Source: Candidatus Helarchaeota archaeon (GTDB taxonomy: Archaea > Asgardarchaeota > Lokiarchaeia > Helarchaeales > RDOG01). Taken from it: a stretch of DNA of 23,999 nt. The position numbers were made by a program, and so were the translations under genes. The notes beneath the pieces are model-generated. The model saw only the letters and a list, made by a program, of their open reading frames with translations. It did not search any database and was not told the origin of the DNA. The stretch spans positions 1 through 23,999 of the forward strand of contig JALGVI010000079.1 in NCBI GenBank assembly GCA_029838215.1, read 5' to 3'. Shown one piece after another: positions 6,672 through 21,607 of this stretch (the first letter of the stretch is position 1; every line of letters starts with the position of its first letter).

Positions 6672-7826
6672 TTAATAAGTAATTTGTTTCTGTATGAAAT
6701 CTTCCGTGATCTCTATATTTTTTAGGACTTCAACGATTTTCTGTGCTGCGTTGCCCTCACCAAATTTATTTTGGGATTTTCGTACATTCTCCAAGAATTC
6801 AGAGTCATACAAAGCGCGGTCAATCGCTTGTAATATGGCTTCTCTTACGGGAGGAACGTCAATGATGTTCTTAGAACGCTCGCGACCAGATTGTCTCTCA
6901 CCGATGTTAATCACGGGTATTTTCATGCTTGGAGCTTCCAATATTCCGCTACTCGAATTTCCAATCATTAAATCAACGGCTTTCATGAAACTGAAATATT
7001 CTACTGGCGAAAGGTTCTCGAATGACAAAACGTAATCATTTTTGCTGAATTCCTTGATACGTGTGATGAAATCTCTTGAACCTGCATCACAATTTGGAAA
7101 AATGAGAACGATTTGTTCCTTTAATTCAGTTAATACATCTAATAACGTTTCCAGTTGAGATAATCCATAATCTTGGAGTGTTGTAATGGGATGCTGGATG
7201 ACTAAATAAGTTTTTTTCCTATAATCCAGTCCATATTTTGAGAATAGGTCTTTTTTCTCGATGAGTTTCGTGTTCAAGATTATATCAAGCGAAGATGATC
7301 CCGTAACAAAAATACGCGATTTGTCTTCGCCCATTTTTTCGATTCGTCTTGCATTTGCCTCTGTAAAAGCAAAATGGATGTGCGAAATTTTTGTAATTGC
7401 ATGACGTATTGATTCATCGATCATCTTTCCAGTGACATCCCCGCCATTTATGTGAGCAATTGGGATATTTAGATACAAAGCAGCCAGTGCAGCGGCCAAT
7501 GCTTCAGAGCGATCTCCTAGAACGACAATGATTTCAGGTCGATTCTCTGACAAATATTCTGTGAAGTTCCTAATTCCATCAGATAAATAATATGCCATGT
7601 CAGATCTTGTATCGCCTGCCAATTTCATTGGTATTGAAATGGCAGATGCAAAATCTTTTTTTATAATTTCGATACTTTTCCCGTATTCTTCCAGCAGATG
7701 CATTCCTGTAACAATCGGAATTAACTCTAAGGTTTCATCTTTGTCTATGAGTGCCATTATGGATTTTAAATAACTGTATTCGGCTCGAGTTCCCGTTACA
7801 ACGGCGATGGTTCTAGATTTCTTCAA
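6672..7826 (-). CDS. neuC: UDP/GDP-N-acetylglucosamine 2-epimerase, hydrolysing (NeuC/LegG family)
   Basis: VTGTRAEY, VTGMHL, VLGDRSE, HINGGDVTG, DESIRHAITK, HP, PNCDAG, GNSSSGILEAP, NIGERQSGRE; overlaps neuB by 14 nt. Confidence 0.92.
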   Translation of the reverse strand: MKKSRTIAVVTGTRAEYSYLKSIMALIDKDETLELIPIVTGMHLLEEYGKSIEIIKKDFASAISIPMKLAGDTRSDMAYYLSDGIRNFTEYLSENRPEIIVVLGDRSEALAAALAALYLNIPIAHINGGDVTGKMIDESIRHAITKISHIHFAFTEANARRIEKMGEDKSRIFVTGSSSLDIILNTKLIEKKDLFSKYGLDYRKKTYLVIQHPITTLQDYGLSQLETLLDVLTELKEQIVLIFPNCDAGSRDFITRIKEFSKNDYVLSFENLSPVEYFSFMKAVDLMIGNSSSGILEAPSMKIPVINIGERQSGRERSKNIIDVPPVREAILQAIDRALYDSEFLENVRKSQNKFGEGNAAQKIVEVLKNIEITEDFIQKQITY

Positions 7827-8865
7827 GCATATCCTCTCTTATAATTTGATCTTTCTTAATGGAACGGTTAAGTCTTTTTCCAATTAGAGAATAAAACTTT
7901 TTAGGACTGATTCCCGTGGCGGGTCTCTTTATGGCAAGCATTTCTTCACGTAGGACCATCCCTTTTTCAATATCAACTCTTGCGACAACGGATTTTCGAA
8001 CAGCTTTCATGATTTCGATTTCTGATGGAACGGGAATTTTCTCATGACTGCCCAATGCTCTTTCAGCCCTTCGAACTTCTGCGATCATTTTTGTCAATTC
8101 TTGAGGATCCAATGAGGCTTTATGATCAGGGCCCGGTAGGTTCTTATCAAAAGTAAAATGCTTTTCTATCACGACAGCACCCATTGCTACAGCCATTATT
8201 GGAACAGTTATTCCTTCGGTATGATCAGAATAACCAACAAGACAGTCCAATTTTTCCTGCATTGTTTTCATTGCATTAAGATTTACTTCTTCAAGTGGAC
8301 ATGGATAATTTGTAGTGGCGTGTAGCATGATGATGTTCTCGTGATATCGTTTAATGAGCTCACAGGCTTCCATCACTTCTTCTAGCGTTGCCATCCCCGT
8401 TCCCAGTATCATTGGTTTTTTTCTTTTTGCCAATTTTTCTAAAAACACGAAGTTGGTAAGGTCACCTGAACCGATCTTATACGCTGGTAGAAGGGCATCC
8501 ATAAATTCAAGAATACCGGAGTACGTATGGAGCGTGGATAAAAAAATGATTTTCTTTTCATCACAATAATTCTTCAATTCTCGAAATTCGTCTAGAGATA
8601 ATTCTAGGTTTTTTAACATTTCTAACTGGGAAATAGTCTTGCCGATATTCTCCTTTTGATAGCCAACAATTTCAACATCTTTGGCAACAAGATCTTCAGA
8701 CACAAATGTTTGAAATTTTATTGCATTTGCCTTGGCGTTTGAAGCAACATCTATCAATTTTTTTGCCAAGTTAATGTCGCCGTTATGATTCACGCCCGCT
8801 TCTGCGATAATAAAACAGGGATTTCCAACTCCAATTTCGCTACTGCCAATTCTAATCGTCACCAT
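7813..8865 (-). CDS. neuB: Nonulosonic acid synthase (NeuB/LegI family) with C-terminal SAF domain
   Basis: IIAEAGVNHNGD, AIKFQTF, KIGSGDLTN, NYP, GYSDHT, IEKHFT, GPDHKASL, RKS, KRPATGISP; GAGGT RBS upstream. Confidence 0.95.
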   Translation of the reverse strand: MVTIRIGSSEIGVGNPCFIIAEAGVNHNGDINLAKKLIDVASNAKANAIKFQTFVSEDLVAKDVEIVGYQKENIGKTISQLEMLKNLELSLDEFRELKNYCDEKKIIFLSTLHTYSGILEFMDALLPAYKIGSGDLTNFVFLEKLAKRKKPMILGTGMATLEEVMEACELIKRYHENIIMLHATTNYPCPLEEVNLNAMKTMQEKLDCLVGYSDHTEGITVPIMAVAMGAVVIEKHFTFDKNLPGPDHKASLDPQELTKMIAEVRRAERALGSHEKIPVPSEIEIMKAVRKSVVARVDIEKGMVLREEMLAIKRPATGISPKKFYSLIGKRLNRSIKKDQIIREDMLEEI

Positions 8866-9007
8866 GCTAACCTCATTGTTTTTCAGCCTAGATTAAAGAA
8901 ATGAATGATTAAAACAAATAATTCGTAAAATAATATCATAAGATTTAAGATTACCTACTTTGTTTAAGTTTTTGTAAATTAGAATAATAATCCGAGGAAA
9001 TATAGGA

Positions 9008-10405
9008 ATGAAGGATTTTAATAAGATTCTGTCAAGAAAAGACCAGTCAATCCGAGATGTAATGAACATAATAAACGATTCTGGTGAAGTTAAAGGTTCT
9101 GTTATTGTTGATGATGATAACCGATTATTAGGAGTCGTAACCGACGGCGATATTAGAAGGGCCATCCTAAATAAAGTGGATTTGGAAACAAAAATTGAAA
9201 AAATTATGATTAAAAACCCATATGTCGCTAAAAGGGACGTGTCAAAAAGAGAAGTCTTCAATGTAATGAAGATGAAAGTATTGGATTTTATTCCCATATT
9301 GGATGACAGTCGAAAGGTCGTAAATGTATATACAATCCAAGACCTCAGCAAGTTTGAAAACAATATCGTTGAACTGAATGAGTTGGAAGACAGAGAAGTA
9401 AAATCCGTGCTCATAATCGGGGGGGCAGGATATACAGGTTCGGTTTTAGTACGAGCGCTATTAACAGAAGGTTATAAAGTAACAGTTTTTGATAACTTAC
9501 AATTCGGAGATAACTCCATTCGAGAACTCAAAAATAATCCTAATTTTAAATTCATTAAAGGAGATATTCGAGATATTCAATCTTTGCTAGAGCATATCAA
9601 AGACTTTGACGCAGTTATTCATTTAGCTGCAATAGTGGGTGACGCTGCATGTAATATTGACCCCGAAAATTCCGAAACTATCAACTTAATGTCCACGAGA
9701 GTCATAGCAGAAATTTGTAAATTTCGCAAGATCCCCCGATTCATCTTTGCTTCAACTTGTAGCGTCTATGGTGCAAGTGATGAACTTTTAAATGAAGAAT
9801 CTGAAGTAAATCCTTTATCGATATATGCTGAAACAAAACTCAAGTCAGAGCAAGCTATTCAAACATTGGCAGATAAAAATTTCTCACCTTGCATTTTTAG
9901 GATTGCCACAGTCTTTGGTCCTTCACCGAGAATGCGTTTTGATTTGGTAGTCAATCTCTTGACCGCAAAAGCTTGTAAAGAGAAAAAAATCACTATCTTT
10001 TCAGGTGAACAATGGAGACCCAATATCCACGTGGAAGATCTTGCAAGGGCTTATATCCAGTGCCTAAAAACACCCAGATACAAAATTCATAATCAAATTT
10101 TTAATGTTGGTGGAAATGATTCAAATTATAAGATAATAGACATCGGTAGGATAATTAAAAAGCTGATACCAGACGCGGAATTAATAATATATGATGATGA
10201 GTTTGATAAAAGAGATTATAAGGTTGATTTTACTAAAATTAAAAATATATTGGGATTTGAACCCCAAAAGAAGATAGAGGATGGAGTTCAAAAAATTCAG
10301 GCGATGTTTGAACAAAATGCAGATTTAGATTTTACCAAAAAGATTTATTATAATTCAAAGAGCTATGAGATAGGGACATTAAAAGGGCTCTATTTTGAGG
10401 CTTAA
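9008..10405 (+). CDS. Fusion of an N-terminal CBS pair and an extended SDR nucleotide-sugar oxidoreductase/epimerase (Cj1427/WcaG-like)
   Basis: Residues 1-115 are a CBS pair (LLGVVTDGDIRRAIL...IMIKNP). The SDR has GGAGYTGS, HLAAIVG, ASTCSVYG, YAETK (YxxxK), RIATVFGPSPRMRFDLVVN and DKRDY. Confidence 0.88.
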   Translation: MKDFNKILSRKDQSIRDVMNIINDSGEVKGSVIVDDDNRLLGVVTDGDIRRAILNKVDLETKIEKIMIKNPYVAKRDVSKREVFNVMKMKVLDFIPILDDSRKVVNVYTIQDLSKFENNIVELNELEDREVKSVLIIGGAGYTGSVLVRALLTEGYKVTVFDNLQFGDNSIRELKNNPNFKFIKGDIRDIQSLLEHIKDFDAVIHLAAIVGDAACNIDPENSETINLMSTRVIAEICKFRKIPRFIFASTCSVYGASDELLNEESEVNPLSIYAETKLKSEQAIQTLADKNFSPCIFRIATVFGPSPRMRFDLVVNLLTAKACKEKKITIFSGEQWRPNIHVEDLARAYIQCLKTPRYKIHNQIFNVGGNDSNYKIIDIGRIIKKLIPDAELIIYDDEFDKRDYKVDFTKIKNILGFEPQKKIEDGVQKIQAMFEQNADLDFTKKIYYNSKSYEIGTLKGLYFEA

Positions 10406-10451
10406 AATTCTTAAAAAATACATTTAAAATAATTCTTAAGAAGGAATAGGA

Positions 10452-11471
10452 ATGAAGGTTCTAATTACTTCTCCCTTTCATCCTGATTCAACAGAAAAAC
10501 TACGTGAAAATGGATTAGACGTGGTCTATGAGAGTTGGATGGAAGTGAACAAGCTATATGTTGGAGAACAGCTGGTCGAAAAGATAAATCAAGACCAAAT
10601 AGACATTTTAGTCATTGAAGCAGACGTGCTTAACGAATTAGTGTTTGAAAAAACAAAAGGCAAGCTAAAATACGTGGCAGCTTGTCGTGCAAACCCTACG
10701 AATGTAGACATTGAAGCCGCAACGAAGGTTGGCGTTCCGGTTTCTAATTCACCAGGACGTGGTGGACCCTCAGTCGCGGAACTTGCCATCGGGATCATGA
10801 TTTGCTTGATGCGGCATCTCCACCGCTCAGATCATGTCGTGAAATCTAAAAAATGGACGGAACAACTCACGTGGGCGACCACGTATCGTGGCATTACTTT
10901 TGAGAATAAGGTTGTAGGTATCGTGAGTTTGGGGGCCGTAGGGTATGAAGTTGCCAAAAGATTACAAAATTGGGACTGTAAAATAATAGTATATGATCCA
11001 TATGTTTCTGAGGAGAAACTTAAAAGCGTGAACGCATCTAGAGTTGATCTTCCAATACTCATGAGAGAATCGGATATTGTTACGGTTCATGCTCCTGTCT
11101 TGGATGAAACAAAGGGCATGATAACCGAAGAACTCATAGGTATGATGAAAAAGACTGCATTTTTCATAAATACGAGCAGGACAGCAATCATTAATGAAAA
11201 AGCAGTTGTAAAAGCAGTCAAGGAAGAACGCATTGCCGGTGCTGGTTTTGATGTTTATTACAAGGAACCTTTAGGACGAACCAATTACTTCAAAGAGTTC
11301 TTTTTTGGAGGTCCTCATGCAGATAAAAACGTCGTTTTCGGAGCACATATTGGAGGCATGACGTGGGATTCCATTAAAACTCAATCGGAAATTGTGACAA
11401 GAGATATTTTAGCATTCATGAAGGGAGAAAAACCTCCAAATCTCTTGAATTTAGAAGTTTGGAATAAATAA
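10452..11471 (+). CDS. D-isomer-specific 2-hydroxyacid dehydrogenase (SerA-like fold)
   Basis: NVDIEAATKVGVPVSNSPG, SVAE, GIVSLGAVG (variant GxGxxG), YDPY, TVHAP, FINTSR (Arg), DVYYKEP (Glu), AHIGG (His). Confidence 0.9.
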   Translation: MKVLITSPFHPDSTEKLRENGLDVVYESWMEVNKLYVGEQLVEKINQDQIDILVIEADVLNELVFEKTKGKLKYVAACRANPTNVDIEAATKVGVPVSNSPGRGGPSVAELAIGIMICLMRHLHRSDHVVKSKKWTEQLTWATTYRGITFENKVVGIVSLGAVGYEVAKRLQNWDCKIIVYDPYVSEEKLKSVNASRVDLPILMRESDIVTVHAPVLDETKGMITEELIGMMKKTAFFINTSRTAIINEKAVVKAVKEERIAGAGFDVYYKEPLGRTNYFKEFFFGGPHADKNVVFGAHIGGMTWDSIKTQSEIVTRDILAFMKGEKPPNLLNLEVWNK

Positions 11472-11498
11472 TTCAACATGACGGATCAGTGATGAGAC

Positions 11499-13004
11499 TT
11501 GTCTGATTCTTTAATTGTATCTTTAGATGCAGGCACGACAGGTGCCAGATGTTTCATTTTTAATATAAAGGGCGATCTAATTCAATCAAGCCGAGCCGAA
11601 TGGACATTTACCGCAACGCCAAAAGTAAACTTGGGCTTGGAATTCCAACCGGAACAATTCTGGCAAGTTCTTTGCAGCCAAATAAAAAATTGTTTTAGAG
11701 CCGGAAATATCAACCCCGAAAATGTAAAGGCAATCGCCTGCACCAGCATGCGTGAAGCACAGGTCATATTAGGAGAAAAAGATGAATACCTTCTTGCCAC
11801 GCCTGCTCATGATTTACGGGCACTTTCACAAGCAATGAAAATTTTTAACAAGCATCGAGATACCATTTATCAGGTAACGGGACGTCTTCCTCCAATGATT
11901 TTTGCTTTGGCGAGACTTCTTTGGATGAAGAGAAAGATGAAAGAAGAATATGCACGGATTTCAATGTTATTGCTTTTTAGCGACTGGATGAATTTCATGC
12001 TTTGTGGGGAGAAAGCGTCAGAACCTTCGGTTGCAGGCGAAAGCATGCTTTTTGACGTGAGGAAGAGAACGTGGTCTGAAGAAATCTTGAATTTATTCGA
12101 AATCACCCCAGATATTTTGCCTCAACTCAAAAATGCAGGAGAGATAGTGGGAGAAATCAATGAAAAAGCCGCCAAGGATACAGGGTTAAAAAAAGGCACG
12201 CCCGTCGTCATGGCGGGAGCTGATTCGCAATGTGGATTATTGGGAATGGGTCTAAATGATGATTTGAATTTGGGAATTATTGCAGGCTCAACGGCGCCCT
12301 TACAAGTTGTTACGGATAAGCCATTATTCGATTCAGAATTAAGAACATGGACAAATTGTCATCTCTTGCAGGATAAATGGATTTTAGAGGCAAATACGGG
12401 ACGAACAGGTGCCGCACTCCTGTGGTTTAAGAAATACTTGGCAGATTTTGGCTTGAAAGAGCAGGAACCATTTGAGAAACTCGAAGAACTAATAAAGGAC
12501 GTTCCGCCAGGTGCAAGAGGTGTCTGGGCTTTCTTAGGACCGATGATAACAAATGCAGGGTCATTGGAAGGACTTGGACAAGGTGGTTTTTTGTTTCCTC
12601 TACCAATAGCGGAGGATAATTCGGGATTGCCCCTATTCTATAAAGCAGCTCTTGAGAATGCTGCATATGCTTTTCGTGGAAATTATGAGATATTATCGGG
12701 CATTCTTGGTAGTGAATTTTCTTCAATCGGAATTGGAGGAGGAATGGTTCAAAGTTCGACATTCGTGCAAATAGTGGCAGATGTCTTGCAAAAACCAGTT
12801 CATACATATCAGACTTTTGAAGCAACGGCATTAGGCGCGTCCATTTGTGCTACTGTAGGGGTGAACATTTACGGTTCTTTTAATGAAGCCACCGATTCCA
12901 TGATCCATCCAACAAAAACCTTTTCTCCAAGTCCTCAACAATCCAAATATAAGTCTCTTTTCAAGCGGTGGTTACAAATAATGCAATCTTTAAAATCAAT
13001 TTAA
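11499..13004 (+). CDS. FGGY-family carbohydrate kinase, most similar by recalled motifs to the LsrK (AI-2/DPD kinase) subgroup
   Basis: LDAGTT, AEW, CTSMRE, RLLW, SDW, GTPVVMAGADSQ, VPPGARGV, ENAA, GGG, EATALG; TTG start. Confidence 0.88.
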   Translation: MSDSLIVSLDAGTTGARCFIFNIKGDLIQSSRAEWTFTATPKVNLGLEFQPEQFWQVLCSQIKNCFRAGNINPENVKAIACTSMREAQVILGEKDEYLLATPAHDLRALSQAMKIFNKHRDTIYQVTGRLPPMIFALARLLWMKRKMKEEYARISMLLLFSDWMNFMLCGEKASEPSVAGESMLFDVRKRTWSEEILNLFEITPDILPQLKNAGEIVGEINEKAAKDTGLKKGTPVVMAGADSQCGLLGMGLNDDLNLGIIAGSTAPLQVVTDKPLFDSELRTWTNCHLLQDKWILEANTGRTGAALLWFKKYLADFGLKEQEPFEKLEELIKDVPPGARGVWAFLGPMITNAGSLEGLGQGGFLFPLPIAEDNSGLPLFYKAALENAAYAFRGNYEILSGILGSEFSSIGIGGGMVQSSTFVQIVADVLQKPVHTYQTFEATALGASICATVGVNIYGSFNEATDSMIHPTKTFSPSPQQSKYKSLFKRWLQIMQSLKSI

Positions 13005-13007
13005 AAC

Positions 13008-13014
13008 TTTTTTT
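13008..13014 (+). terminator. Possible U-tract terminator ending the CBS-SDR/dehydrogenase/kinase unit
   Basis: T7 run 4 nt after the kinase stop, followed by a 175-bp AT-rich intergenic region. Confidence 0.4.
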
Positions 13015-13179
13015 AGAATGAAATAAAAGTTATCAACTAGTCAAAAAATAGATGGAATCAGTTGCAAAAATACTTTTTAAACAAAATAGTTTAACAGTTA
13101 TAATACGAGAGCTTTCATTTTCCAAGTAATTGAGTTTTGAAGATTTTTCATAAAAGAGGACACGTTAAAATGTCGACAG

Positions 13180-14199
13180 ATGGCGAAATTGATATTGCAA
13201 GGAATGAAATGGTTACTGCGACAATTGTTTCTCCAGATGGCTCAAGATGAAGATCTTCCGAATTATTTAAGCACGCCACGTCGATTTATTGAATTAATTG
13301 CCACGAAGGGTTATAAAAACCTCAAATTAACGGAAGCTTTTTTTAATTACTTGCGCGAAATGGGAGTAATTCGCGTGGAAAATGATCAATACATTTGGGA
13401 GAGTCCTTCGGCTTCATCATCCGCAAAGGGTAAAACGGTCATTGAGTCGGAAGCCTTATCCCAAAGAGAAGTTCAAAAGCGCGCCATGCCATTGTTTAGC
13501 ATTCTCCGGAAATATTCGGAACGCCTTCCAAAGGTAATGAAAGGAAATCTAGGAGAGAAGGAAAAAGAATTAATAATTTGGGATTCTCTACATGTAACGG
13601 ACTTGTACCAATGGCTCAGAGATCAAGCAATTAAATACGGACAAATACCTCCCGATTCAATAATTCTTGACGTGAATTGTCGAACGGGTTGGAGCACTAT
13701 TGACTTGATTAGAAATACGGCACCCCGAAGAGTCATTGCAATGGATCCGGACGAAGCAATGATAGAATTGGCATATAATAACATCGTTGCTTATGATTAC
13801 CAAGAAAAAGTGCAACTCGTTGTTGCCGACGTCATTGATAAAATAGAACTTTCGGGCAAAGTGGACGTTATTTTTGCAAACTTATTATTTAACCGATTTG
13901 AGGATAATCAACTCACGGACATTCTCTTTAACATTCAACCACTTCTGAAAAAAGGTGGTATATTCTGTGGATTACAGCCCATTAAAGCGAACGAAAATGT
14001 TGATGGAGCCGAACTTCTTCTATATTCAGATCCGGAGTTCAAGGGATATCCTACATTTCCCGCATTTATAACAGCCTTTGAACGCTCGGGATTCACGGAA
14101 CTTAAAATTGATAAAAGCATGTTCTTTAAAGCCCGTATTGGCGGCGAGAGCATTAGTGACATGAAGAAAGAAGGTCAAAGACTGAAAGTTACAAAATAA
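13180..14199 (+). CDS. Class I SAM-dependent methyltransferase with N-terminal helical/winged-helix-like domain
   Basis: ILDVNCRTG (motif I variant), VIAMDPDEAMI (acidic motif II), LVVADV, VDVIFA, LLKKGGIFC. Confidence 0.72.
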   Translation: MAKLILQGMKWLLRQLFLQMAQDEDLPNYLSTPRRFIELIATKGYKNLKLTEAFFNYLREMGVIRVENDQYIWESPSASSSAKGKTVIESEALSQREVQKRAMPLFSILRKYSERLPKVMKGNLGEKEKELIIWDSLHVTDLYQWLRDQAIKYGQIPPDSIILDVNCRTGWSTIDLIRNTAPRRVIAMDPDEAMIELAYNNIVAYDYQEKVQLVVADVIDKIELSGKVDVIFANLLFNRFEDNQLTDILFNIQPLLKKGGIFCGLQPIKANENVDGAELLLYSDPEFKGYPTFPAFITAFERSGFTELKIDKSMFFKARIGGESISDMKKEGQRLKVTK

Positions 14200-14206
14200 A
14201 AAATGA

Positions 14207-14536: not shown

Positions 14537-14678
14537 TGAAAGACCTCAATTTAAACCTTGGTTTAATTGCGATTCCTTATCGAATTACATAAACTAATCA
14601 CTTCTAGGAGAATTTAAATTATTTTAAAGAAATTATTGACCTAGAAAAGCATTTGAATAAAAAATTGGTGGATTTTTA

Positions 14679-15773
14679 TTGAAGAAGTCGAAAATCGCAT
14701 TCATTTTAGGGACCAGACCAGAAATCATTAAGATGGGACCAATCCTCCAAGAATGTGACAGGGAAAAAATACAATATGAAATCGTGTTTACGGATCAACA
14801 TTATGATTATGAATTATCAAGACGTTTTTTCGAGGAATTGGAGATAAGGGCCCCAGATTTTCACTTGGACGTGGGTTCAGGAACGCAGGCAGTTCAAACT
14901 GCGAAAGCCATGATCAAAATTGAGGAAAATTTGATTCAAAATTCACCTTCTATCGTTGTAGTTCAAGGAGATACGAATACGGTTCTTGCAGGTGGATTGA
15001 CCTCGGCTAAATTGCGAATTCCAGTGGGGCATGTCGAGGCAGGATTGAGATCTAATGATTTTAGGATGCCTGAGGAGATAAATCGAAGAGTTGTAGACCA
15101 CATTTCCCAATATTTATTTGCACCGACAAAGATCACTGTAGAGAATTTGAAAAAAGAAAATGTCTGGGGAAATATCTATGAAACAGGGAATACCATCATA
15201 GACGCTTGTCTCAAAAATTATAAAATAGCCTTAAAAAAGTCTAAAATCTTAACAGACATTGATTTCAAGGATTTTGTTTTAGTCACTTTTCATCGTGCTG
15301 AAAACGTCGATGATTTAAAAGTTCTAACTAACTTCGTGGAATTGCTTGAGCATCTAGATGAGAACTTCATTTTTCCCATTCATAATAGAACTTTAAAGAA
15401 TCTTAAAAAGTTCAGGCTTCTCGAGAGAATCAAGTCAAATGAACGGATTCGATTAATGCCACCAGTTGGATATTTGGACATGTTACTACTCTTGAGTAAA
15501 TCCAAGTTTATTCTTACGGATTCTGGAGGGATCCAAGAAGAGGTCACTGCTCCTATCATTCAGAAGAAGTGTTTCGTTTTGCGTGATTCAACGGAACGAC
15601 CTGAAGCTGTAGAAGCAGGTTTCGTTGAAGTGGTCGGGACAGATTCTGAAAAAGCCAGAAAGGTCATCAAACAAACAGATTATAATGATTTTCAGGGTGT
15701 AGAATCACCTTATGGAGATGGGCAGGCAGCAAAGAAAATTGTTGGCATTCTAAAAAACATCCTTGAAGGCTAA
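14679..15773 (+). CDS. wecB: UDP-N-acetylglucosamine 2-epimerase, non-hydrolysing (WecB/WbpI family)
   Basis: GTRPEIIK, TDQHY, VQGDT, HVEAGLRS, PEEINR, HRAEN, TDSGGIQEE, TERPE, PYGDG; TTG start with GGTGG RBS. Confidence 0.93.
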   Translation: MKKSKIAFILGTRPEIIKMGPILQECDREKIQYEIVFTDQHYDYELSRRFFEELEIRAPDFHLDVGSGTQAVQTAKAMIKIEENLIQNSPSIVVVQGDTNTVLAGGLTSAKLRIPVGHVEAGLRSNDFRMPEEINRRVVDHISQYLFAPTKITVENLKKENVWGNIYETGNTIIDACLKNYKIALKKSKILTDIDFKDFVLVTFHRAENVDDLKVLTNFVELLEHLDENFIFPIHNRTLKNLKKFRLLERIKSNERIRLMPPVGYLDMLLLLSKSKFILTDSGGIQEEVTAPIIQKKCFVLRDSTERPEAVEAGFVEVVGTDSEKARKVIKQTDYNDFQGVESPYGDGQAAKKIVGILKNILEG

Positions 15774-15810
15774 GACGTATATCGTTCATCAAAATAATGG
15801 ATGGTTTGGT

Positions 15811-16656
15811 TTAGAAACCATGAATTCCAAACCGTTCCCATATTCTATCGAAGAAATACATTCCCAAGACAATGGCTATGAGATTAAAGCAAACGATATA
15901 AATAATATCAAAAAAGTTAATTCCAAAAAAGTTTAAAGTTAAAGAATTTACGAAAATGTCCGAAAACCATGTAAGCGGATAAAACCAAATATTGCGAATT
16001 AAAGCAAGTTCCATGTAAAGTGGATTTATTCTTATTACCATTGCAATTGGCAGAGGAAATAATTCGATTGGAATTGAATAGGAACTTAGAAATAGAAATA
16101 CAAAACTCAATAGACCAAATAGGCTCATGAAATTTTCGTTTGATAATGCAATAACGCCACGTAATATTCCAAGTCCAGCGACCCCAGAAGAAAAAAATGC
16201 CAAAACAATAAAAATGAGGAAGATATTAGGTATCAAAGTTGGAGAATAGAGAAATGCAACAATTGCTAAGATGATGGAAATTGCAGTCTGCTCTAATATG
16301 TTTTGTATGACAAATCCAAATAATACAGAATAGCGATTGATGGGTGCCAAGAGTGTAAATTCGATTGTATGCCAATACTTTTCTCGTACGAACACGTTTT
16401 CATATCTAATAAGCATTCTATTGCAGAATTGGAAGAAGATAATTCCCATTAATATCCAAGCACCATAATTATAACGATTTACAGTAATTAAATCCTTGTT
16501 GAAGTAAAAGAAAAAACCACCATATAAGAAGAATAGAGGAAAGAAGGAAATCATTGGGGAAATGGCTATTGTCATGATGTATTTCCAACCGAATCGCATC
16601 TCGATTTTTATCTCTTTTATGCAAATTGCTAATGTTTGTTTTATGAAATGTTTCAA
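15811..16656 (-). CDS. ABC-2 type transporter permease
   Basis: About six hydrophobic segments, EKYWHTIEFTLLAP, P-x-x-x-x-P...NPL; lies immediately downstream of the ABC ATPase. Confidence 0.85.
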   Translation of the reverse strand: MKHFIKQTLAICIKEIKIEMRFGWKYIMTIAISPMISFFPLFFLYGGFFFYFNKDLITVNRYNYGAWILMGIIFFQFCNRMLIRYENVFVREKYWHTIEFTLLAPINRYSVLFGFVIQNILEQTAISIILAIVAFLYSPTLIPNIFLIFIVLAFFSSGVAGLGILRGVIALSNENFMSLFGLLSFVFLFLSSYSIPIELFPLPIAMVIRINPLYMELALIRNIWFYPLTWFSDIFVNSLTLNFFGINFFDIIYIVCFNLIAIVLGMYFFDRIWERFGIHGF

Positions 16657-16673
16657 TTCAGTTTCTCTCCGGA

Positions 16674-17639
16674 CTATTCGCTTGAGAATTGGAAAAAAAT
16701 ACCTTCTAAATCAGGTTCCTGTTCCTTGACGTGTATTATTCGATATTTCGCAAGTATTTTCAAAATTTCGGAATATTCATTCTTACCGTTATCAAAATGA
16801 AATTCTATTTGACCATCTCTTAGAAGGATATCTTCCTTCTCAATCATGTCTATCAATTCATCTTTGATTTTGGCGGAATCGGGACTTTCTACAACCAATT
16901 TTAGCTTGCTTCGTAAAATGGATTTTAGATTGCTTGGAGTATCAAGCTTTATTATTTTGCCTTTTGATAAGAATCCGATTCGATCACTTAATTGCTCGGC
17001 TTCTCTCATATTGTGTGTTGTTAAAATAATAGTTTTACCACTTTCCCGTAGATTCCGGATTATATTTCTTATTTGAATTATACTCATGGGATCTAGTCCC
17101 AAGGTTGGTTCATCCAATACAATAATTTCGGGATCTGTCAATAAAAGGCGACAAAAAGAGAGCTTACAGAGCATTCCTAAAGAATAATTTTCAACATAGT
17201 CATTTATCCATTTTTCGAGACCAAACATTTTCGCTTTTTCATTGATTTTAGCACGTCGGTCAGGAACATTATAAATTTTAGCAAAATAATTTAAATTATC
17301 AAAACCCGTCATTCGCCAATAAATCATGCTGTTACTGAACATGAAACCGAGAATTTTCCCAACATACAATTTATTGGTTAGTGGATTTTTTCCGTTAAGA
17401 AGGGCTTCTCCTGAAGTTGGTTTCAGAAGACCTGAAATTATTTTTATTATGGTTGTTTTTCCTGCGCCATTAGGTCCAAGAAGACCAAAAATCTCGCCAT
17501 TCTTTACAGTGAATGAAACGTCATCCACGGCTTTAAATTTGGCAGGAATATCTCCAAGCATCTTTCGAATAAATCCAAATGTTCTTCTTTTTTCATAGAA
17601 CTTTGATAAATGTTTTACTTCAATTGGATTCATGGTCAT
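16674..17639 (-). CDS. ABC transporter ATP-binding protein (DrrA/NodI-like)
   Basis: Walker A GPNGAGKTT, signature YSLGM, Walker B IIVLDEPT, H-loop TTH, C-terminal EPDLEGIF. Confidence 0.95.
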   Translation of the reverse strand: MTMNPIEVKHLSKFYEKRRTFGFIRKMLGDIPAKFKAVDDVSFTVKNGEIFGLLGPNGAGKTTIIKIISGLLKPTSGEALLNGKNPLTNKLYVGKILGFMFSNSMIYWRMTGFDNLNYFAKIYNVPDRRAKINEKAKMFGLEKWINDYVENYSLGMLCKLSFCRLLLTDPEIIVLDEPTLGLDPMSIIQIRNIIRNLRESGKTIILTTHNMREAEQLSDRIGFLSKGKIIKLDTPSNLKSILRSKLKLVVESPDSAKIKDELIDMIEKEDILLRDGQIEFHFDNGKNEYSEILKILAKYRIIHVKEQEPDLEGIFFQFSSE

Positions 17640-17663
17640 TAGAACTTAGTGATAGAAAAGGAG

Positions 17664-17672
17664 TATAATAAA
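17664..17672 (-). promoter_or_regulatory. Putative archaeal TATA box for a leaderless ABC operon transcript
   Basis: TTTATTATA at -33 to -25 relative to the ATG at 17639, with no RBS in between. Confidence 0.4.
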
Positions 17673-17727
17673 TTAATCCAAATGACATCTAATGATCAAA
17701 AAAATCGAGCTGTTCGCCCATAAATAT

Positions 17728-17752
17728 CAAGAAAAAACAAGAAAAAAAAGAA
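17728..17752 (-). terminator. U-rich terminator downstream of the dodecin-like gene
   Basis: The minus strand reads TTCTTTTTTTTCTTGTTTTTTCTTG (on the plus strand, CAAGAAAAAA x2), about 30 nt past the stop. Confidence 0.5.
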
Positions 17753-17779
17753 TTGAGTTGTTGTTGAAGGATTTGGGAC

Positions 17780-17992
17780 TTATTTCTCTTCATACTTAAA
17801 AGAGAGCCGTACTCGTGCACGATACATTACGATCTTGTTGTTATCGATTTTGACATCTAATTGAACGACTTCTGCAATTCGAAGATCGCGTAATGACTTA
17901 GAGGCTTGCGTTATTGCAACCTGTACGGCATCTTCCCATCCTTTTTCCGAGGCTCCAACGAGCTCTATTATTTTATATACAGAATCAGGCAA
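17780..17992 (-). CDS. Dodecin-family small protein
   Basis: 70 aa: SVYKIIELVGAS-x-x-GWEDAV...AS-x-SLRDLRIAEV...YRARVRLSFKYE; TTG start with GTGGGG RBS. Confidence 0.9.
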   Translation of the reverse strand: MPDSVYKIIELVGASEKGWEDAVQVAITQASKSLRDLRIAEVVQLDVKIDNNKIVMYRARVRLSFKYEEK

Positions 17993-18119
17993 AATTTCAA
18001 CCCCACTTGATTTTTGCTGAAAAAAAATGAGTATTTATTTCTAAGTCGGAGCATCCTTATTTATTTTTCCACGACAAATGACTTATTAATTGGAATTCAT
18101 TTACAAAATTGAGTGGATT

Positions 18120-19214
18120 ATGATGAAGATCCCGATCATAAAACCCTGTGTTAACCGTTATACGGAAGAATTACTGCCAATTCTGGGAGAAATTCTTAAT
18201 AGTAACATGCTTACCAATGTTCATGATTATACCGTAAAATTTGAAGATGCAATAAAGAAATATCTTGCTTGTAAGGATACTATTGCCCTGTCATCATGTA
18301 CCTCGGGTTTGATCCTTACGTTTAAAGCTCTAGGAATTTCAAATAAAGAAATTATCTTACCAAGCTTTACATTTGTGGCAACCGCGGCAGTGGCTTCTTG
18401 GACAAATAATAAGATAAAATACGCGGACATTGATGATACATTAACCATTGCCCCCGATGACGTGAATGAAAAAGTTTCATCCAAGACGGGTGCAATTTTA
18501 GCGGTTCACATGTATGGAAATCCTGCGCATGTTAAAGAACTGGGTGAAATCGCAAGTGATCATGGCATTCCGCTTATTTTTGATGGTGCTCATGCTTTGG
18601 GAGCTGAATATCATGAAAAGAAAATTGGGAATTTTGGAATGGCAGAAGTATTTAGCTTGAGTCCAACAAAGCTCTTAACAACAGTTGAAGGTGGGATTGT
18701 TTCAACAAGTAATGAAGAATTAGCCGAAAAATTGCGAATTTTAAGGAATTATGGAATGAATCCGGACTATACTTCCAAAATGGCAGGAATTAATGCAAGA
18801 ATGTCTGAAATACATGCCGCTATTGGATTAGTACAGGTTAAAGATTTAGAAACGTTTATTTCAAACCGAAATGATTACGTGAATTTGTACAAAAAAGAAT
18901 TATCTTCGATTAATGGAATTAGCTTCCAAAGAATTCCAGAAAATCACAGGAGCACGCATAAAGATTTCTCGATAATATTGGATCCTGAGAAATACGGGAT
19001 GAATCGGGATGAGCTTGGGAAAAAGTTGGAAGGTTCGGGTGTAGGAGTAAAGAAATACTTCTTCCCGCCGATGCATCGACTTAAAGCATACGAAGATAAA
19101 GATGCGAAATTACCCATCACGGATGAAGTGTCAAACAATCTTTTATCTCTTCCAATTCATAACTTCATGCATGAGTCTGACATAAAAAGAATAGTAGACC
19201 TTATTCGAGGATAA
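18120..19214 (+). CDS. DegT/DnrJ/EryC1/StrS PLP-dependent sugar aminotransferase (VioA/DesI-like)
   Basis: ALSSCTSGL, PSFTFVAT, VHMYGNP, IFDGAHALG, FSLSPTK (PLP Lys), EGG, GINARMSE. The start is placed at ATG 18120/18123 after GAGTGG rather than TTG 18090. Confidence 0.92.
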   Translation: MMKIPIIKPCVNRYTEELLPILGEILNSNMLTNVHDYTVKFEDAIKKYLACKDTIALSSCTSGLILTFKALGISNKEIILPSFTFVATAAVASWTNNKIKYADIDDTLTIAPDDVNEKVSSKTGAILAVHMYGNPAHVKELGEIASDHGIPLIFDGAHALGAEYHEKKIGNFGMAEVFSLSPTKLLTTVEGGIVSTSNEELAEKLRILRNYGMNPDYTSKMAGINARMSEIHAAIGLVQVKDLETFISNRNDYVNLYKKELSSINGISFQRIPENHRSTHKDFSIILDPEKYGMNRDELGKKLEGSGVGVKKYFFPPMHRLKAYEDKDAKLPITDEVSNNLLSLPIHNFMHESDIKRIVDLIRG

Positions 19215-19217
19215 AAG

Positions 19218-19619
19218 ATGACAGAAGACCGTTTTAAGGATTGGAAGCCTCCAGAGTTTGATGAAAGGGGGTTTACAAAATGGAATTGGTGGTGTCAACA
19301 TCATCAGAACTTGAAATTAGGAATCAAGACGGATATTGGTGCTTTTACATATATGAACGCGAAATTTGGGATTGAGATTGGTGATTACGTTCAGGTTGCT
19401 TCACACTGTGCCATATATTCTTATTCCACGATAGATAATAAGAAGGGAAAGGTAATAATAAAGGAAAATGCAAAAATTGGATCTCATTGCGTGATTTTTC
19501 CAGGAATAACGATTGGTAAAAATGCAATTATCGGTGCGGGTGCAGTCGTGACGAAAGACGTTCCTGATAATGCCGTAGCCATTGGAATTCCTGCAAAAGT
19601 AGTGAGATATATCGACTAG
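19218..19619 (+). CDS. Hexapeptide-repeat (left-handed beta-helix) acetyl/acyltransferase
   Basis: IGDYVQV, IKENAKIGSHCVIFPGITIGKNAIIGAGAVVTKDVP...GIPAKV; 3 nt after the aminotransferase stop. Confidence 0.9.
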   Translation: MTEDRFKDWKPPEFDERGFTKWNWWCQHHQNLKLGIKTDIGAFTYMNAKFGIEIGDYVQVASHCAIYSYSTIDNKKGKVIIKENAKIGSHCVIFPGITIGKNAIIGAGAVVTKDVPDNAVAIGIPAKVVRYID

Positions 19620-19636
19620 ATTAAGGGTTTCTTCTT

Positions 19637-21607
19637 TCAAACATCACGTGCAATCTTCTCAATTTGTTGAACAATTCTTTTTGTTGACATTCCATCAAAA
19701 GAAAAGCAATGATCCTTGATGAAATTATTCCGATTTTTTTTCATTTCTTGAACATATTCAGGATCACTTAAGATTTTTTTTAAAGATAAAGCAAGGTCAT
19801 CAGAATTTGCAACAACTGAAGCAACAGAATAGGGTAAATATTGATTCTGAACTTCGTAATCAAAATGCCCTTCCAATTTCCGTATCAATATGAGATTTTT
19901 GTCCATCAAAATGGCTTCGGTGGCCGTCGTGGATGTTCTGGTTATGACGAAGTCGCTAGCATCATAAAGTTCGTATAGATTTACATTTCTTAAGACAGGT
20001 ACGTTTGAAATTCCGTTCATTGCCAAAAAATTTTCATAACGCTCGGTTGATTCGTGTGGATGCGTTTTGATAATCAGTCGAACGGTGGGAACGTCTTTTA
20101 GTGCTTTGAGAATCATCAGGATATCTTTTTTCATCTCATTGAAGAATTTATTTTGTGTTGTAAAGACTAATACCTTCTCTTCAGGTTTTATGCCTAGCTG
20201 TGACCGAAATTCTCGGGAATTGAAGAATTTTTTTTGAGCCCAAATCAAGTCAAATCTTGGGAGTCCTGTTGTAATAACATTACTTTCAGGAAATCTGGCC
20301 TGAGTTATTAATAATTCCTTGAAATGATTACCCATTGTAAACATGTACGTTGGTAAAAATGCATGTTCTTCCTTGAGTGGGTGAAAGTAGTCGTAATCAT
20401 TAACAGTAATTTCACCGTGTTGAATTCCAATAACGGGTTTATTCAATTTTTTTGCGTGATAACATAGTATTTTTCCAACGACGGTATTTTCCGAAGCGAA
20501 TAATAAAACATCGGGATTCTTTCTCACGAGCATGTTTCTTGCGGCTTCAAACATTTTTATCGTTCTCAAAATCCCAAAATGGAAAATTCTCGAGACATGT
20601 TCTTTGTATAATGGCCATAAAGAAACACCCTTAAATGAAAAAATTCGAATGAAATTGTCATTTTTTTCAAGTATTTTCCATCTTTCTTTGAATATTTGGC
20701 TTGCTTGAAGTATTTTTCTGCACGTGGTAAGATTAACATGACCATCCAGATAAAAGCAATTAGAAGGGCGGATTAGTAGTTCTTTGAACATTTTTAAAAA
20801 AGAGAATGGACTTACACCCAAGAGAACCATTAAATCGTGTTGTCTTGCAAGATATGTCATTACTGAACTCATTATAAATTCCGTGAAAACGAGTTTTTTT
20901 CGGGCGTGATCGTATCTGCTTTTAAAACTGTTGATAAAAGTCAGTAGAAGAATGCTCAAATTTCCCTTTTTTCTCACGGTATAATGGAAGAAATTCAGAA
21001 GTTTCGTGAAGATTGCCCTTGCCATGGTTTCGTAAATCATCAGAATGGAATACACGGGCTTTATTAAAGCAATGATTCTATCACGGAAAGATCTTGAGTG
21101 CCTATAATGTCTGATGAACGTCGTCTTTATACTTTTCGCTTGACAAAATAGTTCAAGTATTTCATTTTGATAATCGCGTGTTTTATTCAAAATTATTATT
21201 TCATCTGGTTTCTCTTTATCAATTATTCTCTCCAGACTTAAGATGAGAAAAAAGATTTTCCTAAATCGGTAATCATAGCTCGTTACCAAAGGGTAATCAT
21301 TAAGCCACCATAAGGAAATATCTTCATGATAAAATAATTTTCTAAAATTTAGATTTGGATGTATTTCTGCTAACACCCAACTTTTCATCCACTTTGAAAG
21401 CATCAAATTACTTCTATTCACAAAATCCTTTTCGAGAAATTCTTCTACGCTTTTAATTTCAATGGTAGTAAAGCGTTGTTGAACCTCTTTTTTTAAGAGA
21501 TCATCAAAAAGGATGACTTTTAATTCTTCATTTTGTTTTAATCGAAAAAGAGCAAGAGCCTCGACGTCTGCTCTTGAAAAAATACAGGACAGGAGTATTT
21601 TTACCAT
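19637..21607 (-). CDS. Large surface-carbohydrate biosynthesis protein with C-terminal GT-B-like (TagF/sialyltransferase-like) domain
   Basis: GIQHG, TGLPRFD, FTTQ, IKTHPHE, SDFVITRTSTTATEAILMDK. Start is ATG 21607, or GTG 21619 (which may instead be part of the RBS). Confidence 0.65.
   Translation of the reverse strand: MVKILLSCIFSRADVEALALFRLKQNEELKVILFDDLLKKEVQQRFTTIEIKSVEEFLEKDFVNRSNLMLSKWMKSWVLAEIHPNLNFRKLFYHEDISLWWLNDYPLVTSYDYRFRKIFFLILSLERIIDKEKPDEIIILNKTRDYQNEILELFCQAKSIKTTFIRHYRHSRSFRDRIIALIKPVYSILMIYETMARAIFTKLLNFFHYTVRKKGNLSILLLTFINSFKSRYDHARKKLVFTEFIMSSVMTYLARQHDLMVLLGVSPFSFLKMFKELLIRPSNCFYLDGHVNLTTCRKILQASQIFKERWKILEKNDNFIRIFSFKGVSLWPLYKEHVSRIFHFGILRTIKMFEAARNMLVRKNPDVLLFASENTVVGKILCYHAKKLNKPVIGIQHGEITVNDYDYFHPLKEEHAFLPTYMFTMGNHFKELLITQARFPESNVITTGLPRFDLIWAQKKFFNSREFRSQLGIKPEEKVLVFTTQNKFFNEMKKDILMILKALKDVPTVRLIIKTHPHESTERYENFLAMNGISNVPVLRNVNLYELYDASDFVITRTSTTATEAILMDKNLILIRKLEGHFDYEVQNQYLPYSVASVVANSDDLALSLKKILSDPEYVQEMKKNRNNFIKDHCFSFDGMSTKRIVQQIEKIARDV

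Follow-up and report, generated by a model that had tools for sequence, protein, structure and literature searches.

To our knowledge, every characterised type of 4,6-dehydratase (RmlB, GMD, CDP-glucose dehydratase, PseB/PglF) carries an Asp or Glu at position +1 or +2 of the catalytic Thr. Cj1427, an SDR and the studied enzyme closest to the protein described here, leaves the C6 hydroxyl in place on the 4-keto sugar that it releases (PMC10680097). It acts on GDP-heptose and is the sole member of its clade with biochemistry. In a surface-glycan locus of a Helarchaeales archaeon (Asgard), a gene for a CBS-fused SDR of this clade lies next to nonulosonate synthesis genes. Comparison of sequences and gene neighbourhoods leads us to propose, at not quite an even chance, that the locus encodes synthesis of a nonulosonate similar to legionaminic acid, with a CBS-regulated C4 dehydrogenase of the Cj1427 type in place of the 4,6-dehydratase.

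Gene content of the locus

The window, the whole stretch of DNA analysed, is an entire 24-kb contig (23,999 nucleotides) of a MAG, and a gene absent from it may still be present in the genome. All genes named in the preliminary description were confirmed, positions included, by Pfam and NCBIfam. On the minus strand lie genes for a NeuC/LegG-type hydrolysing NDP-hexosamine 2-epimerase (6672..7826; TIGR03568, 421 bits against a cut-off of 236) and a NeuB/LegI-type nonulosonate synthase (7813..8865; TIGR03569, 426 bits against a cut-off of 400). A divergent, AT-rich intergenic region of 142 bp (8866..9007, read directly from the sequence) separates neuB from the plus-strand gene for the CBS-SDR, a 465-aa fusion of a CBS pair and an extended SDR (9008..10405; two Pfam CBS domains and Epimerase), and the two genes might be co-regulated from this region. 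A DegT-family PLP aminotransferase (18090..19214, plus strand; PF01041, 330 bits) and a small left-handed beta-helix (LbH) N-acetyltransferase of 133 aa (19218..19619, plus strand; Hexapep) are encoded 8 kb from the SDR. This distance and the opposite orientation of neuC and neuB count against the proposed pathway; the preliminary description had itself cautioned that the genes are in separate transcription units. Adjacent on the minus strand is the gene for a 660-aa GT-B-like protein (19637..21619) with matches to Epimerase_2 (C-terminal half), Glyphos_transf and Capsule_synth.

WecB, a non-hydrolysing UDP-GlcNAc 2-epimerase (14679..15773, plus strand; TIGR00236, 381 bits against a cut-off of 210), and a nucleotide-sugar dehydrogenase (2-1369), whose best match is an archaeal UDP-ManNAc dehydrogenase, form a separate hexosaminuronic-acid branch. 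A SAM methyltransferase (13180..14199, plus strand; Methyltransf_25/11/12) is probably a tailoring enzyme, and methyltransferases are frequent in homologous cassettes. The ABC-2 permease and ATPase (15811..17639, minus strand; ABC2_membrane and ABC_tran) are probably a glycan exporter; an ABC pair likewise adjoins DegT and the CBS-SDR in another Asgard genome (G192). The FGGY-family sugar kinase (11499..13004, plus strand; FGGY_N and FGGY_C, with LsrK and xylulokinase as top matches, under cut-off) had no counterpart in the remaining SDR loci and is lineage-specific, not a conserved partner. The B12-binding radical SAM enzyme (5211..6626, minus strand; PF02310 and PF04055, with HpnJ and BchE as top NCBIfam matches far under cut-off) is a recurrent neighbour of CBS-SDR cassettes: the loci L027, L029/L031, L051 and L108 also have it, and the L144 copy separates the DegT gene from that of the CBS-SDR.

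Relationship of the CBS-SDR to Cj1427

Likeness of the SDR to Cj1427 had first been suggested from shared motifs. These are present verbatim (GGAGYTGSVL at residue 138, DNLQF at 162, LAAIVG at 206, ASTCS at 248, RIATVFGPSPRMRFDLVVN at 298 and DKRDYKV at 400) and align with the equivalent blocks of PDB 6VO6, the title of which is Cj1427. Homology is confirmed by 6VO6 being the best PDB match, both with the single sequence (180 bits) and with the family profile (257 bits vs 149 for the next), and the top structural match of an AF2 model of the SDR (pLDDT 87.8; Z 36.6, rmsd 1.9 Å, 37% identity). A feature missing from the preliminary description is the N-terminal CBS pair, at about residues 10-115. 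The search for heptose genes that the same description had called for found none in the Helarchaeales genome.

Association with nonulosonate synthesis

A DegT gene lies within 5 kb of the SDR relative in 68 of 83 loci, mostly adjacent and on the same strand, as expected if the SDR passes on a keto sugar. The window DegT contains GINARMSE exactly as reported earlier and has DesI as best match in NCBIfam (275 bits, under cut-off) and in the PDB (2po3, 189 bits). It falls into a clade of 12 (SH-aLRT 100) whose 11 other members all directly adjoin Cj1427-like SDRs, and it is proposed to be the C4 aminotransferase partner of the SDR. The LbH acetyltransferase, with PDB matches confined to the C-terminal coils of WlbB, QdtC and FdtD-type enzymes, is 54-65% identical to its counterparts in NeuC-LbH-DegT-CBS-SDR or NeuB-LbH-DegT-CBS-SDR operons (L036, L038, L028, L075, L142). 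Both window genes thus have orthologues beside such SDRs, which, together with the LegG-like NeuC, speaks for their belonging to the module. The 660-aa protein is a candidate nonulosonate transferase: it matches the BFO_1060-family glycosyltransferase domain (113 bits, under the cut-off of 200), and its homologues adjoin NeuA/NeuB in L027, L039, L075, L085, L142 and L144.

A possible but unlikely alternative is that the locus holds two independent pathways, with NeuC, NeuB and NeuA making Neu5Ac from UDP-GlcNAc while a second, nucleotide-activated sugar, a 4-acetamido-4-deoxy-hexosamine, comes from the CBS-SDR, DegT and LbH and enters the glycan unchanged. NeuC and NeuB do pass the equivalog cut-offs of the Neu5Ac pathway, the two gene sets lie on opposite strands 8 kb apart, SDR relatives without CBS serve non-nonulosonate glycans with PglC-like transferases, and other sugars are clearly made at this locus via WecB and the UDP-sugar dehydrogenase. 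However, CBS-fused SDRs recur in NeuA-NeuB-NeuC-LbH-DegT-SDR operons, and tight NeuB/NeuC-LbH-DegT-CBS-SDR operons are repeated across unrelated lineages. Nonulosonate genes moreover track the CBS fusion, since NeuA, NeuB or NeuC is encoded in 15 of the 27 loci whose SDR is fused to CBS (e.g. L085, L042, L145, G004), as opposed to just 1 of the 61 whose SDR lacks it. The window NeuC is also closer to LegG, a GDP/UDP-diacetylbacillosamine 2-epimerase (PDB 5xvs, best match, 243 bits), than to enzymes acting on UDP-GlcNAc (human GNE, 197 bits), and LegG acts on a 2,4-diacetamido sugar.

Absence of a 4,6-dehydratase from the window

The preliminary description reported no 4,6-dehydratase, which holds for the window, where the CBS-SDR is the only SDR. 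It does not hold for the genome, in which contig C106 encodes a LegB-like 4,6-dehydratase with the motif T-S-E (TIGR04180, 471.8 bits, just short of the cut-off of 475) and, as its neighbour, a nucleotidyltransferase of the GDP/UDP type. Ordinary legionaminic acid, with this pair feeding DegT, LbH, NeuC and NeuB and the CBS-SDR acting elsewhere (e.g. in further oxidation and amination, or epimerisation), is nevertheless improbable. In its favour, the genome search found no NeuC besides the window copy, so that any Leg route needs this one, and in Methanococcoides a LegB-like/transferase pair 56% identical to that on C106 lies inside a gene string with NeuA-NeuB-NeuC-LbH-DegT-CBS-SDR (L028). 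In L028, however, a flanking gene for an SDR of the reductase type suggests that the LegB-like gene is part of a 6-deoxy-sugar module, and the C106 gene itself sits among rmlA, rmlB and rmlD. A LegB-like gene is present in 16 genomes of the phylum sample, of which 9, including a 100%-complete one scoring above the cut-off, lack NeuB, so that the enzyme is not tied to nonulosonates there. Conversely, no LegB, PseB or PglF was found in G192 and G004, Asgard genomes that contain the cassette and are 95% and 93% complete (top scores: LegB <=185 bits, PF02719 <=90 bits), and compact NeuA/NeuB/NeuC/DegT/CBS-SDR cassettes without a dehydratase occur repeatedly. Against the proposed pathway, G004 and L144 lack NeuC.

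Catalytic motif and redox balance

Slightly less probable again is that the CBS-SDR is itself a cryptic 4,6-dehydratase using unconventional residues, e.g. the conserved Cys, and that the cassette yields an ordinary 9-deoxy sugar of the Leg or Pse type. Its gene fills the exact operon slot of LegB, PseB or PglF, bacterial relatives bear a PglF-like N-terminal membrane anchor, and the Cys and Ser following the catalytic Thr are near-invariant in the clade. The NeuBs are likewise interchangeable with those from dehydratase-containing clusters: the window NeuB, apart from the second NeuB of the genome, falls into a large clade mixing synthases with dehydratase neighbours and synthases from CBS-SDR loci, the CBS-associated ones not being separated from the others. 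In favour of the proposed pathway, the L027 NeuB is sister (support 100) to NeuBs beside PseB-like dehydratases, which is what a swap of the first enzyme between close relatives would produce. Against a dehydratase stands the catalytic motif itself, STCSVYG, which in this SDR is accompanied by YAETK. The acidic residue said earlier to be lacking is indeed absent, and throughout the clade (S[T/S]CSVYG in 85 of 89) neither of the two positions after the Thr is acidic, in contrast to the LegB-like protein (T-S-E) and RmlB (T-D-E) of the same genome. The closest studied enzyme moreover yields a 4-keto sugar retaining the C6-OH (PMC10680097). Against the C4 dehydrogenase reading, the near-invariant Cys beside the catalytic Thr could have an unrecognised catalytic role.

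Net oxidation is also implied by gene neighbours. A true L-2-hydroxyglutarate oxidase gene, LhgO (NF008726, 540 bits), directly adjoins 45-49% identical bacterial SDR relatives in L056, L064 and L077, which fits an oxidation requiring 2-oxoglutarate rather than a redox-neutral dehydratase. The 2-oxoglutarate shuttle between aminotransferase and SDR proposed earlier thus gains indirect support, but archaeal SDR loci show no conserved NAD-recycling partner. The D-isomer 2-hydroxyacid dehydrogenase (10452..11471, plus strand; PF02826 and PF00389), 46 bp downstream of the SDR and previously suggested to recycle the hydroxyacid, is not a conserved partner either. No orthologue lies near the SDR in other annotated loci, the only other 2-Hacid_dh seen (L143) being 30% identical and 8 kb away, and the protein looks like a phosphoglycerate dehydrogenase or glyoxylate reductase (best PDB match P. 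horikoshii phosphoglycerate dehydrogenase, 192 bits, followed by glyoxylate reductases).

That SDR and DegT act late and introduce an extra amino group, either on the completed (CMP-)nonulosonate or at a different carbon, is very improbable: a dehydratase and the CBS-SDR do co-occur with two or three DegTs in L028, L051 (where a PseB-like gene adjoins the CBS-SDR) and L144, but the extended-SDR fold and closest relative indicate C4 of a nucleotide-hexose or -heptose, and cassettes such as those of G004, L085 and L145 encode a single DegT but lack a dehydratase, so that the first step there must fall to the SDR.

Proposed pathway and comparison with known systems

In the C4 dehydrogenase pathway that we infer, including its substrate, lack of dehydration, NAD+ regeneration, stereochemistry and product, the CBS-SDR would act as an NDP-GlcNAc C4 dehydrogenase, oxidising C4 of UDP- or GDP-GlcNAc and releasing a 4-keto sugar with the C6 hydroxyl kept, without 4,6-dehydration. 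DegT would then aminate C4 and the small LbH enzyme N-acetylate the amine, after which the LegG-like NeuC would epimerise C2 and remove the nucleotide, and NeuB would condense the sugar with PEP. The product would be activated by a CMP-synthetase, the gene of which is present on contig C147 of the same genome, and transferred by the 660-aa GT-B protein.

This route is predicted to yield a 5,7-diacetamido nonulosonate keeping the C9 hydroxyl (Neu5Ac7NAc type), possibly with further methylation or amidination. In the searchable literature Neu5Ac7NAc occurs as a synthetic analogue only. If the pathway operates as proposed, its product may be a hybrid of sialic and legionaminic acid so far known only as a synthetic compound. 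A further parallel to the described heptose system is seen in L043 and L143, where RmlD-like reductases adjoin the SDR in an arrangement that recalls the Cj1427/Cj1428 pair.

Gene content of the locus

The assembly that holds the window spans 3.6 Mb in 170 contigs (38.6% GC), with the window forming the entire contig C36, and the same locus is also present on a 77.7-kb JGI contig. Besides a nucleotide-sugar 6-dehydrogenase gene (2-1369, plus strand), three glycosyltransferase genes and additional GT4 genes, the window encodes a B12-binding radical SAM enzyme (5211-6626, minus), NeuC (6672-7826, minus) and NeuB (7813-8865, minus), the last two scoring above the NCBIfam equivalog cut-offs (TIGR03568, 421 bits; TIGR03569, 426 bits). 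These are followed on the plus strand by a fusion of a CBS pair with an SDR (CBS-SDR; 9008-10405), a D-2-hydroxyacid dehydrogenase (10452-11471), an FGGY kinase (11499-13004), a methyltransferase (13180-14199) and WecB (14679-15773). Further on lie an ABC-2 exporter pair (15811-17639, minus), a DegT aminotransferase (18090-19214, plus), a hexapeptide acetyltransferase of 133 amino acids with a left-handed beta-helix (LbH; 19218-19619, plus) and a GT-B-like protein of 660 amino acids (19637-21619, minus) that gave a sub-threshold match to a BFO_1060-family glycosyltransferase. Overlapping the CBS region is a minus-strand ORF (8893-9414) that matches no family and is uncalled in the JGI records; it was taken as spurious.

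In contigs from two sister samples, 99.9% identity to the window ends at window positions 13085-13088, an intergenic point between the FGGY kinase and methyltransferase genes. Beyond this junction (L025 from 14078, L026 from 6437), the sister contigs carry an integrase gene 45 bp away, an HTH regulator and Mu-type portal genes. The insert has the appearance of a virus or mobile element integrated in this Asgard lineage and missing from the window's variant. In one sister contig, moreover, a 53-bp deletion (window 644-696) leaves the nucleotide-sugar dehydrogenase gene broken into two ORFs (L025:1282-2362). On the longer JGI contig, a TviC-like SDR gene with the motif SSSSVYG (L024:28-984) lies immediately upstream of the window, in a stretch missing from the MAG. 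It precedes the nucleotide-sugar dehydrogenase gene, and the pair suggests a UDP-GalNAcA-type branch within the window's locus.

The CBS-SDR and its closest relatives

The CBS-SDR has the extended SDR fold with a Gly-rich NAD site and a complete Thr/Ser plus Tyr-x3-Lys triad (GGAGYTGS at 138, ASTCS at 248 and YAETK at 273). Its likeness to Campylobacter Cj1427 had been proposed in the preliminary description from sequence motifs, every one of which, together with those quoted for DegT, was found in the window proteins. Sequence, profile and structural model bear this out: epimerases, dehydratases and decarboxylases are all more distant from the SDR than Cj1427 is. The best solved-structure match of the single sequence is 6VO6/6VO8 (180 bits versus 110 for the next), 6VO6 being named as Cj1427 by its entry title, and a profile of 24 family members scored 257 bits with Cj1427 and 149 bits with the next best structure. 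An AlphaFold (AF2) model with a pLDDT of 87.8 aligned to 6VO6 with Z 36.6 and an rmsd of 1.9 A over 298 residues at 37% identity, while the GalE, RmlB, LegB and PseB models of NCBIfam all scored far under their cut-offs.

No acid/base pair for 4,6-dehydration stands beside the catalytic Thr of the CBS-SDR, where the following residues are C-S; they are S-E in the LegB-like protein of the same genome and D-E in its RmlB. The motif S[T/S]CSVYG occurs in 85 of 89 collected relatives and is near-invariant across the alignment. Members of the clade come in three architectures (stand-alone, membrane-anchored and CBS-fused); for the CBS-fused form alone, over 120 sequence clusters share at least 45% identity with the window protein. 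The closest homologue, from a Helarchaeota MAG, is 65% identical, and a scan of genome contigs with the single protein returned only distant relatives (25-33% identity).

Gene neighbourhoods

We collected relatives of at least 35% identity by scanning metagenomes, looking up exact proteins and searching genomes; they represent 83 non-redundant loci, 22 with CBS-fused forms and 61 without CBS. A DegT gene lies within 5 kb of the SDR gene in 68 of the 83, mostly adjacent and on the same strand. Nonulosonate genes accompany the CBS-fused forms in 10 of 22 loci and in all five further loci (in Asgard genomes G192 and G004, and L143, L144 and L145), and are found in one of the 61 loci without CBS. 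Gene strings of this kind are NeuA-NeuB-NeuC-DegT-SDR (L085), NeuB-NeuC-LbH-SDR-DegT (L042), NeuA-NeuB-x-NeuC-...-LbH-DegT-SDR (L145) and NeuA-x-NeuB-LbH-DegT-SDR-flippase (G004).

The forms without CBS are bacterial and have DegT, PglC-like transferase, GT4 and Wzz genes as neighbours. The N-terminal domain of bacterial relatives (L056:9527-10030, L064:483-980, L077:9467-10030 and L061:9563-10030) has about 150 residues with three to four hydrophobic helices and no Pfam match, and resembles the membrane anchor of PglF/CapD. These forms take the slot normally filled by PglF.

The B12-binding radical SAM enzyme is found repeatedly among the CBS-SDR nonulosonate cassettes (window 5211-6626, L027:3799-5187 and L144:8385-9929), its gene lying between DegT and SDR in L144; it may act in C-methylation, deoxygenation or some other step. 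Two cassettes with NeuA, NeuB, DegT and CBS-SDR are without NeuC, namely L142 (G004:C4, 4076-11568) and L144 (5157-16077), and NeuC is absent from the whole G004 genome. Both retain a protein of 550-660 amino acids with an Epimerase_2-like C-terminal half, a candidate transferase or epimerase substitute.

Availability of a 4,6-dehydratase

The earlier claim that a 4,6-dehydratase is absent holds for the window, where neither LegB nor another such enzyme was found, and no PseB/PglF was detected in the genome (best matches of 67 bits to PF02719 and 69 bits to TIGR03589), but a LegB-like gene is present on contig C106. Its product of 333 amino acids reaches 471.8 bits with the LegB model against a cut-off of 475, and the gene adjoins a nucleotidyltransferase gene and rmlA, rmlB and rmlD.

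Within a phylum sample of 251 genomes, NeuB was present in 60, a PseB-like gene in 40 (31 also with NeuB), a LegB-like gene in 16 (7 also with NeuB) and a Cj1427-like SDR in 23 (9 also with NeuB). Only three sampled genomes have the CBS-fused form, and LegB and PseB/PglF are absent from two of them, G192 (95% complete) and G004 (93% complete). Dehydratase and CBS-SDR genes occur together in the Methanococcoides locus L028, which holds a LegB-like gene with a transferase and a reductase as well as a PseB-like gene set, and also in L051.

DegT, LbH, NeuC and NeuB

The window DegT belongs to a 12-member clade supported at 100%, and the remaining 11 members all directly adjoin Cj1427-like SDRs. 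Its score with the LegC model TIGR04181 is 198 bits versus a cut-off of 420, and its nearest relative is DesI, in agreement with the resemblance first noted. The LbH protein matches generic C-terminal coils only and is 54-65% identical to those encoded within CBS-SDR nonulosonate operons. Both enzymes could carry out steps analogous to those of LegC and LegH. For NeuC, the best PDB match is LegG of Acinetobacter (5xvs), with 243 bits versus 197 for GNE.

In the NeuB tree, CBS-associated synthases were not clustered apart from dehydratase-associated ones, the observed value being reached in 221 of 500 shuffles, and the window NeuB is separate from the genome's second NeuB. At the closest locus, L027, NeuB has as its sister group NeuBs adjoining PseB-like genes, a placement that agrees with an exchange of the first enzyme. 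In total, the genome contains one NeuC, two NeuB and two CMP-synthetase genes, the latter being CTP_transf_3 genes outside the window, on contig C147 by the second NeuB. This second nonulosonate locus (L035:4799-17210) encodes a WbuX-type amidotransferase, a HisF/HisH-like protein, a CMP-synthetase and the second NeuB followed by a HAD phosphatase, and in addition an SDR, an aldehyde dehydrogenase, a transketolase-like protein and a CMP-synthetase/methyltransferase fusion.

Redox recycling

An L-2-hydroxyglutarate oxidase gene (LhgO; NF008726, 540 bits) directly adjoins the SDR gene in three bacterial loci (L056, L064 and L077), whose SDRs are 45-49% identical to that of the window and share its motif. 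By analogy, this arrangement would fit net oxidation by a Cj1427-like ping-pong mechanism, in which 2-oxoglutarate reoxidises a tightly bound NADH, rather than a redox-neutral dehydratase, and would be in line with NAD recycling driven by 2-oxoglutarate. LhgO was found neither in the window nor in any CBS-fused locus, and no comparable redox partner is conserved across the archaeal loci. The adjacent 2-hydroxyacid dehydrogenase, previously suggested to recycle the hydroxyacid, is not supported in this role. It is not conserved with the SDR and resembles phosphoglycerate dehydrogenase or glyoxylate reductase. Among the SDR loci compared, it and the FGGY kinase recur in this organism's own contigs only, and the 2-Hacid_dh protein of L143 is just 30% identical to it. 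Neither this dehydrogenase nor Fe-ADH is supported as a conserved redox partner, the Fe-ADH of L145 being part of a phosphonate module.

Proposed route and product

It is possible, and we propose it tentatively, that many archaea (Asgard, DPANN and methanogens) and uncultured bacteria use an undescribed nonulosonic acid route in which a CBS-regulated Cj1427-type dehydrogenase takes the place of the 4,6-dehydratase, giving natural Neu5Ac7NAc-type sugars. The comparisons lend real support to the preliminary idea of NeuC and NeuB being supplied by a Cj1427-type oxidase, DegT and an acetyltransferase, but the LegB-like gene in the genome speaks against it. We infer that the CBS-SDR route proceeds without dehydration, as we do its substrate and its product, the latter corresponding to Neu5Ac7NAc. 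In this organism, the retained primary hydroxyl might also permit phosphorylation by the co-transcribed FGGY kinase, as well as a role for the second NeuB and the HAD phosphatase of C147.

To our knowledge, the known 5,7-diamino nonulosonic acids (legionaminic, pseudaminic, acinetaminic and fusaminic acid) are all 9-deoxy because their pathways start with a 4,6-dehydratase. Neu5Ac7NAc-type sugars, equivalent to legionaminic acid with a C9 hydroxyl, are known so far only as synthetic sialic acid mimics that resist sialidases. Neu5Ac7NAc itself (7-acetamido-7-deoxy-Neu5Ac), which is the predicted product in the case of equatorial C4 amination, is described in the literature searched solely as a synthetic analogue and chemoenzymatic probe, without a natural source; nor did that literature hold anything on a natural 5,7-diamino-3,5,7-trideoxy nonulosonate or on CBS domains and nonulosonic acids in archaea. 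Neu5Ac7NAc has one more oxygen atom than Leg5,7Ac2, carried at C9 (PMC11356810). If true, the dehydrogenase-initiated route would add a natural class bridging sialic and legionaminic acids, assign a role to a large SDR clade that is so far uncharacterised and extend the 2-oxoacid-coupled ping-pong dehydrogenase chemistry of Cj1427 past heptoses. It would also offer insight into the Asgard archaeal cell surface, and its enzymes would provide a direct biocatalytic route to Neu5Ac7NAc-type probes.

Comparison with known pathways

With NeuC, NeuB and NeuA all present, the genome may make Neu5Ac, a pathway that shares with the locus both equivalog-level Neu enzymes and a product in which the C9 hydroxyl would stay. 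However, the Neu5Ac pathway needs none of the oxidase, aminotransferase and acetyltransferase that travel as a conserved module with the window's Neu-type genes, and this conserved SDR/DegT/LbH linkage argues that more than Neu5Ac is made.

The proposed dehydrogenase route is close to the CMP-legionaminic acid pathway (PtmE, LegB, LegC, LegH, LegG, LegI and LegF in C. jejuni; a UDP route in Acinetobacter and Legionella), as C4 amination, N-acetylation, a hydrolysing 2-epimerase, PEP condensation and CMP activation are expected in both after the first step, and a LegG-type NeuC and LegI-type NeuB are present. PtmE of that pathway likewise carries a CBS pair. In contrast, the window cluster is without LegB, its DegT is far under the LegC cut-off, its LbH lacks the N-terminal domain of PglD/LegH, and the predicted product, unlike legionaminic acid, keeps the C9 hydroxyl. 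Bacillosamine synthesis by PglF/PglE/PglD/PglC is matched by the bacterial SDR relatives with their PglF-like anchor, DegT and PglC-like transferase, although PglF is a CapD-type dehydratase and the clade consists of GalE-like extended SDRs without the dehydratase residues.

WbpB/WbpE provide a precedent for coupling a sugar dehydrogenase to an aminotransferase via 2-oxoglutarate, in their case with oxidation and amination at C3, and the presence of WecB, a dehydrogenase, DegT and LbH prompted consideration of a similar C3 route to 2,3-diacetamido uronic acids. This is not favoured: C4 is the site of action for the SDR fold and its nearest relative, DesI is the closest match of DegT, and the partners conserved across loci are NeuB, NeuC and NeuA. 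WbpB is a Gfo/Idh/MocA enzyme, unlike the GalE-like SDRs of the clade. An ArnA/UXS-type decarboxylase of UDP-GlcA or UDP-GlcNAcA, brought to mind by the UDP-sugar dehydrogenase at 2-1369, is unlikely because clade members lack the Glu that an S-E motif would have, and the SDR gene is not regularly accompanied by the dehydrogenase gene.

Cj1427 itself converts GDP-D-glycero-D-manno-heptose to the 4-keto sugar by C4 oxidation, with alpha-ketoglutarate supplied as the oxidant (PMC10680097). A heptose substrate was rejected for the CBS-SDR, as gmhA is absent from the genome (best match 23 bits versus a cut-off of 209) and GDP-heptose is therefore unavailable. In two loci (L143:9047-9961 and L043:2040-2990), an RmlD-like reductase with the motif STDWVY lies between DegT and CBS-SDR, which may recall the Cj1427/Cj1428 dehydrogenase-reductase pair. 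The CBS-SDR differs from Cj1427 in its N-terminal CBS pair, in having Cys instead of Asn at the +1 residue, and in being partnered with an aminotransferase rather than a C3/C5 epimerase and a reductase; its context is nonulosonate synthesis, and it is therefore not a functional orthologue. Common to both are the extended SDR fold with about 37-40% identity across the whole catalytic domain, the blocks GGAGY.GSVL, LAA.VG, R.ATVFG.SPRMR.DL.VN and DKRDY.V, and a Thr/Tyr/Lys triad in which no acidic residue follows the Thr.
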